This document shows, piece by piece, positions 11,553-12,478 of a DNA stretch of 45,491 bases. Under the pieces are notes generated by a model. That model did no database searches. It was given only the letters and a program-made list of their open reading frames with translations, and was not told the DNA's origin. Position 1 is the first letter of the stretch. The number at the start of each line of letters is the position of its first letter. Source of the stretch: Escherichia phage fEg-Eco06. The translations under genes and the position numbers were made by a program. The stretch lies in sequence record PQ141284.1; one strand, 5' to 3'.

Positions 11553-11581
11553 ATAGTACCCTATTATATTGGTGTGTGCAA
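11553..11581 (-). promoter_or_regulatory. sigma70-like promoter (TTGCAC-N17-TACTAT family)
   Basis: on minus strand TTGCAC (11581-11576), 17-bp spacer, TACTAT (11558-11553); same architecture at 21099-21127 and 44443-44471. Confidence 0.55.
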
Positions 11582-11647
11582 ACTATTTATTTACGTATTC
11601 CAGTTATTCCACTCAATTGTAAATGTTGGAATAAACTATTCGAATAG

Positions 11648-11676
11648 TTGACTTTTCACTAAAAATGTGCTAAGCT
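11648..11676 (+). promoter_or_regulatory. sigma70-like promoter with extended -10
   Basis: TTGACT (11648-11653), 17-bp spacer, TGcTAAGCT; 12-bp palindrome CTATTCGAATAG immediately upstream. Confidence 0.5.
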
Positions 11677-11900
11677 CCACCTGAGCTTGTGAAGTATGAA
11701 CAAGCGACCGCGGCGCGGGCAGGTAACGGAGCGGGACGTAAGTCCTGAGTGTAGTTACGCTGACGCGTTCGGAAGGGCCATACTCTATTGCTTGTGTAAA
11801 AAGTAACTGGTTTACTGAGATTACGCCGTTTCTATGTTTAAATGATAAGGACTAGCGCCCCGCTTTAAGGCGGGGCTTTACTTATCGAGAAAGGGGAAAC

Positions 11901-12287
11901 ATGAATCTTAAAGCAACTGTCGTGGCAGGAGCATGTTTCATCATCCTGGCTTACACACACGGCATCTACCAGTATCGCAGCGGCTGGAACGAAGGCCGGG
12001 CGAATCTCGTTTCGCAGCAACAGCAGAAAGTACAGGCTGAGTTAGCGAAGAAAACACAACGGCAGCAGCAGGATGAATCAAAGGCCGCCGCCGCCGACAA
12101 CGAAGGCAAGACGAAATCAGAGGTGATTACCCGTGAAGTCGTTAAGTACATTAAAACGCCTGGTCGCAGCGTGTGCACTTTTGACGATGCTCGCGTCCTG
12201 CTCAAGTCCCGCGCCGTCGCCAACGCCAATTCCATCTCCGGATACGACGATGATGCAGCCGCCGTGCAAGCTGGCGCCACCAAGTAG
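11901..12287 (+). CDS. Rz: i-spanin (Rz-like)
   Basis: 128 aa; N-terminal TM helix, Q/E/K-rich coiled-coil region; contains the embedded o-spanin gene in +1 frame. Confidence 0.65.
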   Translation: MNLKATVVAGACFIILAYTHGIYQYRSGWNEGRANLVSQQQQKVQAELAKKTQRQQQDESKAAAADNEGKTKSEVITREVVKYIKTPGRSVCTFDDARVLLKSRAVANANSISGYDDDAAAVQAGATK

Positions 12288-12396
12288 TGACGCGGACGAG
12301 GATTTAGCTATCGACGTTCAGAACGCCGAATGCGTACGGCAACTGAGACTGAAAGTGTTCATGTTGCAGGATTACGTGAGGAATATTCTGGAATAG
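12133..12396 (+). CDS. Rz1: o-spanin (Rz1-like lipoprotein), overlapping Rz
   Basis: 87 aa; signal peptide with lipobox LASC; proline-rich mature region PAPSPTPIPSP; starts inside Rz and extends past it. Confidence 0.65.
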   Translation: MKSLSTLKRLVAACALLTMLASCSSPAPSPTPIPSPDTTMMQPPCKLAPPSSDADEDLAIDVQNAECVRQLRLKVFMLQDYVRNILE

Positions 12397-12478
12397 TTGC
12401 CTTGCATGTTGGAATAATTTATTCTTGACATGTAAATCCGGGTGGCCCGGATTCCAACGTCCAGGGGACATACTGACT

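Follow-up and report, generated by a model that had tools for sequence, protein, structure and literature searches.

The spanin locus and its relatives

The window analysed here is the 45,491-nt sequence of Escherichia phage fEg-Eco06 (sequence record PQ141284.1), and our interest is in its two spanin genes, Rz and Rz1, and above all in the long leader that precedes them and that carries a conserved RNA fold. Rz (11901-12287, plus strand) encodes a protein of 128 amino acids (aa) with the make-up of an i-spanin: it is small, starts with a hydrophobic N-terminal segment (MNLKATVVAGACFIILAYTHGIY) that would span the membrane ahead of a periplasmic domain, and matches phrog_2536 (‘Rz-like spanin’) over its full length (E 4.6e-54). 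Rz1 (12133-12396, plus strand, GTG start, 87 aa) lies in another reading frame than Rz and has the features of an o-spanin: a signal peptide leading to the lipobox L-A-S-C (...ALLTMLASC-SSPAPSPTPIPSP) with its lipoprotein cysteine, a proline-rich mature part, and matches to phrog_1267 (E 9.5e-19, residues 8-86) and phrog_5672 (E 4.6e-30); its counterpart in phage AG11, AG11_09, has the same annotated length. The two genes form a genuine two-component spanin pair, with a presumed role in the disruption of the outer membrane. A preliminary description of this DNA had called the pair embedded; as Rz1 ends 109 nt past the Rz stop at 12287, the architecture is the overlapped one.

The leader measures about 224 nt from the -10 element of a putative promoter, P1, to the Rz ATG, close to the 225 nt first estimated, and its parts all lie on the plus strand. 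Directly after promoter P1 comes a G+C-rich, conserved structured RNA domain of about 115 nt (11677-11796), made up of a 5' hairpin (11685-11705; hairpin P1, by the same label), a long irregular hairpin with invariant internal loops (about 11708-11778) and a single-stranded tail, GGAAGGGCC...UCUAUUG. Then follow a less conserved, A+U-rich part (11797-11856) with the partly conserved motif GUUUCUAUG, and finally the GC-rich hairpin GCCCCGC-UUUAAG-GCGGGGC (11857-11876) that had been noticed from the outset.

A megablast search with positions 11300-12700 returned 357 phage records, headed by Escherichia Kagunavirus phages that are 96-98% identical along the whole query; Salmonella Jerseyvirus phages are numerous among them. 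Because of these matches, fEg-Eco06 is classed from its sequence as Kagunavirus-like within the Guernseyvirinae. Four lineages were compared for synteny: the Kagunavirus phages Bas74, Schulenburg and Golestan; the Jerseyviruses SP-101 and AG11; Cornellvirus SP-031; and Pantoea phage AH01. They have in common the order head morphogenesis gene, Hoc-like decoration gene, in some cases a variable small minus-strand gene, long intergenic leader, Rz/Rz1, scaffold gene and major capsid protein gene, and the spanin gene order is identical in every relative compared. The spanins had been said to lie between head genes, which holds for their place between decoration and scaffold genes, the immediate neighbours being a small minus-strand open reading frame (ORF) and the scaffold gene.

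The other lysis genes are a holin (1950-2258), a second holin (2251-2523) and an endolysin (2486-2986). All five genes fall in PHROG lysis families, and the 8.9 kb between the spanins and the holin-endolysin genes agree with the roughly 9 kb of the preliminary description, which saw in the spanins a displaced or possibly horizontally acquired cassette. That part of its view is not supported by the synteny comparison: because the order is the same across all four lineages, the position of the spanins is best read as an ancestral trait of the subfamily rather than a recent displacement. The separation of Rz/Rz1 from holin and endolysin is annotated already in Kagunavirus and Jerseyvirus genomes such as Golestan, fBC-Eco01, Schulenburg and Bas74, from which the present phage shows no difference, and spanins far from the holin and endolysin were listed in earlier genome papers (PMC7203180, PMC9825357).

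A conserved structured leader RNA

Two covariance models score the domain of fEg-Eco06 at 142.6 bits (R1) and 133 bits (R2). The evidence for the fold comes foremost from alignments made without regard to structure. In the MAFFT alignment of 18 distinct Kagunavirus-type sequences (A2), for which RNAalifold returns the 5' hairpin plus the long irregular hairpin, 97.3% of the cells are paired; sliding the partners lowers this to 34-45%, and none of 500 shuffles did as well. The pairs 38:97 (CG/UA/AU) and 48:86 (UA/GC/AU), in the window roughly 11714 with 11768 and 11723 with 11758, each occur in three pair types. Adding the Jerseyvirus types, again with MAFFT, gives six covarying pairs (A3). In the model-fitted alignment of 44 distinct sequences (A4), 96.1% of the cells are paired against 25.6-43.2% with slid partners, with a covariation score of 0.284 against at most 0.051; as A4 is biased towards the model, the MAFFT-based counts are to be taken as the independent evidence. 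Hairpin P1 is retained in the AG11 type even though its stem is replaced wholesale (ACGCU/AGCGU versus GCUUGU/ACAAGC). An alternative closing helix, 11693-11698/11779-11784, which the single-sequence minimum-energy fold proposes, was discarded: natural variants (CAUAGU) break it, and hairpin P1 is always kept. Across all types the unpaired CGGAAGG is invariant and the tail UCUAUUG nearly so, while GAGUGUAGU is invariant within the Kagunavirus-type sequences; such invariant unpaired segments suggest a conserved binding partner.

With the leader alone as query, 180 phage records were recovered at 95-99.7% identity, several of them in two places. In some relatives the second copy lies between a gene for an Xis/AlpA-like helix-turn-helix (HTH) protein and the early ORFs, at an early promoter; these early-locus copies are 79-90% identical to the spanin leader from exactly the -35 to about +113, so that promoter and RNA appear to travel as one unit. 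The present phage has no significant copy there: its early leader (44086-44320) was considered as a diverged copy and set aside at model E-values of 1.4 and 9.7, its 5' part being different and only the 3' part, from GATAATTAAAAGTTTCTATAG onward, being shared with the early locus of relatives. At the spanin locus, most Jerseyviruses have a diverged allele (the AG11 type, 269 records), and a third RNA type occurs at the early locus of some contigs. In Cornellvirus only the CGGAAGGG motif is kept, with other hairpins, and the long structured leader of Pantoea phage AH01 is a different one. What stands ahead of the spanins is, in all four lineages, a long structured leader with a GC hairpin after it.

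Beyond these phages the RNA was not met with. Pattern matching against 185,579 genomes of bacteria and archaea found no match, nor did BLAST against both strands of 5,426 complete E. coli genomes; in IMG/VR nearly all model-confirmed pattern matches are on contigs of about 41-45 kb, the range of Guernseyvirinae genomes. Looser IMG/VR matches outside the Guernseyvirinae (L056-L071) are chance ones that model R1 does not match, and a further one (L085) looks like chance from its sequence and is not matched by model R2. In the pattern scans run, the RNA is restricted to Guernseyvirinae contigs. Against Rfam 15, the stretch 11500-12500 stays without a match at the gathering threshold; relaxing the limit to E 10 brings up only chance-level ones (e.g. 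wcaG, 16 bits against a threshold of 42). ARAGORN finds no tRNA or tmRNA. Some Jerseyvirus records (e.g. Salmonella phage horsemountain, L074 535-612) do list a ‘tRNA-Ser’ by the spanin locus, on the minus strand and over the end of the decoration gene and its terminator; it is probably spurious, since ARAGORN reports no tRNA in the homologous AG11 locus.

Part of the domain is annotated in some relatives as a ‘hypothetical protein’ of 36 aa (ORF at 11696-11806, plus strand). Its start codon and reading frame are not conserved among the homologues: the ATG is lost (to ATC) in four types (L012, L037, L050 and L054) and is absent in the AG11 type, and two otherwise near-identical late-locus copies (L020 and L009) have 1-nt indels. 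As it also has no PHROG family match, the ORF most likely is not a gene and the leader RNA is non-coding; by the same token Bas74_0007, Schulenberg_008 and AG11_07 (which overlaps the ORF) are most likely annotations to be corrected. That the conservation would instead reflect a real ORF, or an element acting as DNA (an origin whose replication is primed by transcription, say, or a packaging site), is highly improbable in our opinion. Strong conservation of the DNA, an A+T-rich stretch after the G+C-rich domain and the annotated ORF could be adduced for it, but the compensatory changes keep the RNA pairing rather than the DNA sequence, the two loci share no iterons, and the ORF fails in start codon and frame. 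In our judgement the leader is very probably a real structured non-coding RNA. It is a new, uncatalogued family of a familiar general kind, i.e. a promoter-proximal structured leader or small RNA; in the literature we found no relevant transcript or RNA studies of these phages and nothing on the timing of their late or lysis genes.

Putative promoters and repeats around the spanins

The putative promoter P1 (plus strand) is made up of the -35 element TTGACT (11648-11653; 5/6 matches to sigma70), a 17-bp spacer, an extended -10 TG (11668-11669) and the -10 element TAAGCT (11671-11676; 3/6 matches, among them T1, A2 and T6). Both the AG11 and the SP-031 type retain its TGnTA..CT element, and the P1 elements recur in the early-locus paralogues; transcription would start near 11683-11684.

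Upstream of P1 lie several short repeats, again on the plus strand. The two direct TATTCCA copies of the preliminary description are found at 11596-11602 and 11605-11611, 9 bp from start to start. Its 11-mer, TGTTGGAATAA, does have exactly two copies in the genome, one on each side of the spanins, which lie a little further along than first given, at 11624-11634 (this copy contains an inverted TGGAATA) and 12407-12417. At up to two mismatches the 11-mer has 13 matches against 11.8 expected, which is background, and one repeated 11- or 12-mer in 45 kb is by itself unremarkable. The motif that does stand out from the background is a larger one: both 11-mers are the left portion of a palindrome GAATA-N3-TATTC, present as GAATAAACTATTC (11629-11641, a candidate operator) and GAATAATTTATTC (12412-12424). 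The sole two exact genome copies of GAATANNNTATTC flank the spanins, and at up to one mismatch it has 7 matches against 1.1 expected, a number reached by none of 100 shuffles. Likewise, 5 of the 8 genome copies of TATTCCA/TGGAATA are in the two intergenic regions that flank the spanins.

The layout of these repeats is conserved better than their surroundings. In AG11, TATTCCA is followed after 9 bp by TATTCCT, after another 22 bp by AGGAATA and after 21 bp more by the -35, the spacing of the present phage with a different intervening sequence; in Cornellvirus SP-031 TATTCCA occurs twice with the spacing kept; and GAATA-N3-TATTC persists as GAATACTTTATTC in AG11 and as GAATAAATTATTC in SP-031. 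The perfect 12-bp palindrome CTATTCGAATAG reported earlier is indeed present (11636-11647), yet it is lineage-specific, being kept in neither the AG11 type nor SP-031. We infer that the repeats are conserved regulatory DNA, which could provide operator half-sites for some protein and overlap promoter elements. The two TTGAC boxes that had been noted after the 11-mers fare differently: the upstream one, TTGACT, belongs to the conserved P1, whereas the downstream one, TTGACA (12425-12430), is TTGTTA in AG11. With a putative promoter of their own, a long conserved leader and operator-like repeats on both sides, separate regulation of the spanins, as the preliminary description proposed, is plausible.

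Downstream, where the final codons and stop of Rz1 (GGAATATTCTGGAATAG, plus strand) fall within the repeat region 12380-12430, a better conserved candidate than TTGACA is a putative plus-strand promoter with TTGCCT (12397-12402), a 17-bp spacing and TATTCT (12420-12425), all three invariant in the Kagunavirus and AG11 types. Its transcript would start just before a conserved hairpin, AAUCCGGG-UGG-CCCGGAUU (12435-12453, plus strand), about 26 nt ahead of the scaffold ATG (12479). Between Kagunavirus and Jerseyvirus this hairpin has two compensatory pair changes (AUCCGGG/CCCGGAU versus CACCGGG/CCCGGUG), and it may be the 5'-terminal hairpin of a scaffold/capsid transcript from 12397-12425.

On the other strand, a leftward sigma70-like promoter (11553-11581, minus strand; TTGCAC 11576-11581, 17 bp, TACTAT 11553-11558) serves the small ORF 11525-11322. 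Its 23-nt element TGAATAGTACCCTATTATATTGG has three copies where none is expected (minus strand: 11550-11572, 21095-21117 and 44452-44474). The consensus was published for a relative as a PHIRE ‘phage promoter’ (‘phage-polymerase promoter’) (PMC9825357); seen in place, it looks like a plain sigma70 promoter (TTGCAC-17-TACTAT), and the annotation of the close relative Bas74 lists no phage RNA polymerase.

Exchange of the leader between lineages

From about 11596 to 12050, over a block made up of promoter, leader RNA and roughly the first 150 nt of Rz, fEg-Eco06 and Jerseyvirus SP-101 are 92-100% identical, while the flanking genes are 50-90% identical between the two phages. For 11600-12000 the identity is again 92-100%; a value of 94-100% was first taken as a sign of extreme purifying selection. 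Because most Jerseyviruses have the diverged allele (among the Salmonella phage records, about 264 with the AG11-type against about 65 with the Kagunavirus-type allele), an exchange explains the identity better, and the promoter-leader-Rz 5' block appears to have passed between lineages as an allele block, not kept alike by selection only.

This exchange is one of two observations that might be cited for a mobile or recently acquired spanin cassette bounded by ATGTTGGAATAA repeats, the other being that the 19-nt stretches 11623-11641 and 12406-12424, which flank the spanins, are 89% identical. Against it, the exchanged block stops inside Rz near 12050, short of the downstream repeat, and the repeats keep their place and lie across promoter-like elements. 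A recombinase or target-site duplication is not evident. With the common synteny of the four lineages, which largely refutes it, this view, the original one, has very little left to commend it.

Predicted transcription through the hairpin before Rz

The hairpin 11857-11876 has 8 pairs, 7 of them G-C, and is followed by UUUACUUAUC (together 11857-11885, plus strand); with its tail TTTACTTATC it passes a scan for intrinsic terminators, and an A-rich stretch upstream of it can pair with the tail. The terminator-like element ends 16 nt, and the hairpin 24 nt, ahead of the Rz ATG. As this leaves no room for another promoter, Rz would be transcribable only through the hairpin. Further plus-strand terminators follow in the same gene series, at 14248-14269 (after the capsid gene) and 18632-18651, with no consensus promoter in between, so that read-through should matter for late expression. 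A hairpin stands at the homologous place in all lineages; that of AG11 fails the terminator scan for its poor U-tract, and the tails in SP-031 and AH01 are U-poor.

These features suggest, as a tentative first choice to which we would give somewhat less than an even chance, a cis-acting leader of the attenuator or antitermination type. P1, a host-type sigma70 promoter just downstream of the operator-like repeats, would start a transcript at the folded RNA domain, and some 60 nt past the domain this transcript would meet the GC hairpin and its short U-tract before the ribosome-binding site of Rz. A fraction of the transcripts would end at the hairpin as free RNAs of about 200 nt; the remainder would continue into the genes for spanins, scaffold, capsid and tail. 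The extent of read-through by RNA polymerase would depend on the folded domain, acting alone or via a phage factor, as an attenuator or as a site of processive antitermination; by an alternative cis route the leader might affect the stability of the mRNA. The activity of P1, its start site, termination at the hairpin and the mechanism in cis are here read from the layout. The preference is founded on this anatomy, on the covarying and non-coding fold, on the promoter and the RNA moving together, on the structured leaders before the spanins of all four lineages, on the importance that the later terminators give to read-through, on the weak terminators of the other alleles, and on the precedents of AlpA/alpBCDE and lambda; in AG11, where the U-tract is poor, the RNA would mostly stay on the spanin mRNA, which favours a role in cis.

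Almost as likely, and thus a real possibility though again a minority one, is a stand-alone small RNA (sRNA) gene, in which P1 makes an abundant RNA of about 200 nt that acts in trans, either as a sponge or decoy for a protein or by regulatory base pairing, and in which the spanins are expressed by leaky read-through. The unit does begin with a promoter and close with a terminator-like hairpin, whose U-tract has a complementary A-rich stretch upstream; in relatives, the early-locus RNA has a hairpin plus UUUU behind it, and a promoter apart then serves the ORFs; some phages have two copies per genome; and the invariant loops and tails (GAGUGUAGU, CGGAAGGG and UCUAUUG) suggest a conserved partner. 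Yet in most Jerseyviruses, SP-031 and AH01 the hairpin is not terminator-like, so that a discrete 3' end would need processing there, the U-tail is short for an Hfq-type small RNA, and the spanins would be left without any other promoter. On either strand of the E. coli genomes, BLAST brought up no long stretch complementary to a host target, a search that short seeds would escape.

Several observations weigh against the cis-acting leader. A consensus scan does not flag P1, its -10 having only 3/6 matches. The terminator-like tail is found only in the allele of the present phage, as compared with the AG11, SP-031 and AH01 types, so that the hairpin may be conserved for something other than termination. 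In relatives the early locus, with the RNA, its own hairpin and a separate promoter for the ORFs, resembles a stand-alone RNA gene, and the candidate promoter at 12397-12425 could feed the scaffold and capsid genes independently. As to a simple riboswitch-type attenuator, inspection by eye found no pairing between the domain and the terminator arm GCCCCGC, that is, no competing terminator and antiterminator, and the paralogues with the same domain carry unrelated hairpins. No antiterminator is present among the 81 annotated features of Bas74 (a profile scan did not extend to every ORF of the present phage); the sole regulator is the small HTH_17 Xis/AlpA-like protein, which has no significant sequence match to any solved structure.

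A third view takes the RNA for an element of the 5' untranslated region (UTR) that protects the spanin and late mRNA from RNase E or Rho, or tunes the translation of Rz, and leaves termination unaffected. It is consistent with the start of hairpin P1 at about 2 nt from the predicted transcription start, with the second conserved hairpin at the presumed 5' end of the scaffold transcript, and with the stable long leaders that head several operons (44120-44420 with z = -5.9, and the int-alpA match at 21145). A stabiliser, however, needs no 115 nt or so with invariant internal loops and an invariant single-stranded tail, and the early paralogues are cut off from their ORFs by another promoter; we regard this view as quite unlikely.

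Other operon heads and a gene insertion

A second operon of the present phage may also be headed by a structured RNA. Positions 21145-21209 (plus strand) match the Rfam int-alpA RNA (RF02996) at 36.6 bits against a gathering score of 35.8, directly after an extended -10, TGcTAGAAT, and heading the tail-gene operon, which starts at 21234. The early intergenic region (44086-44420, plus strand), where many relatives have a paralogue of the spanin-leader RNA, has its own promoter-like TTGACA-17-TAAGGT, and the leader RNA 44120-44420 folds very stably (the z of -5.9 given above); two small minus-strand ORFs that are annotated in the early intergenic region of Bas74 may be spurious.

Further upstream, the head-morphogenesis (MuF-like) gene (8861-10831) contains an in-frame insertion of about 894 bp (9553-10446) that is absent from Golestan. 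The insertion has a weak Pfam Intein_splicing match, below the family cut-off, and on the opposite strand a 342-aa ORF (9623-10651) gives weak matches of the HTH_7 and restriction-endonuclease-like kinds. An intein is one possible reading of the insertion, a homing element of unusual layout another.

Comparison with known systems

The arrangement of the spanins was known already, and the structured leader RNA is the new part. Kagunavirus and Jerseyvirus phages are widely isolated and have been proposed for therapy and food safety, and an RNA fused to its promoter, which heads the spanin and virion genes and is duplicated at some early promoters, offers a testable handle on the regulation of their late and lysis genes. 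Action in trans would make it a new non-coding RNA of phages.

Of the systems to which it may be compared, one is the AlpA-dependent antitermination of the alpBCDE lysis operon of Pseudomonas aeruginosa, with its promoter, leader terminator and lysis genes (PMC7969949). The spanin locus resembles it in having a putative promoter and a terminator-like hairpin in the leader ahead of lysis genes, and in that the phage encodes an Xis/AlpA-like HTH_17 protein; unlike the AlpA system, the spacer of P1 has no GGGACG-N5-GGTA element, and a link between the HTH_17 protein and P1 is pure conjecture. The leader also resembles phage RNAs in Rfam, such as int-alpA (RF02996), as a short structured RNA right after a promoter at the head of a phage operon, while matching no Rfam family itself.

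In phage lambda, the late promoter PR' is followed by the 6S RNA of about 194 nt, the terminator tR' and then S-R-Rz/Rz1 and the head and tail genes, under control of the antiterminator Q. The present locus likewise combines a putative sigma70 promoter with some 200 nt of leader, a terminator-like hairpin at the leader's end, and lysis followed by virion genes. It differs from lambda in that no Q homologue is annotated in the close relative Bas74, so that a Q-dependent late leader is not indicated by that annotation, in that only the spanins follow, without holin and endolysin, and in that the leader has a conserved, covarying fold, which the lambda mechanism is not known to need.

Phage HK022 has put RNAs of about 70 nt, which bring about antitermination in cis and independently of factors. 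Our leader is like them a folded RNA near its promoter, with conserved unpaired bases and terminators downstream, and in some relatives its two copies stand at two operon heads; it differs in its length (about 115 against about 70 nt), and antitermination is in its case a supposition by analogy. A similarity to put was looked for with model R1, which has no match in the early operons when run on the whole HK022 genome with filters off, and this candidate relationship was dropped. The best HK022 match of the leader model (E 0.045, L072 36886-36962) lies in the late leader downstream of gene Q, covers the first hairpin and the tail only, and probably is due to chance. The likeness of the leader RNA to the lambda late leader and to put is thus one of layout only. 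Unlikely, but of wide reach if true, would be that the domain represents a new class of promoter-coupled RNA in virulent enterobacterial siphoviruses, a put-like antiterminator that, free of factors or with a small one, acts on its own RNA polymerase and switches on the spanin, head and tail operon and, in the relatives with two copies, the early operon. To our knowledge, HK022 put is so far the sole example of an RNA that modifies RNA polymerase, and if the leader RNA of these phages did so as well, it would be the second.

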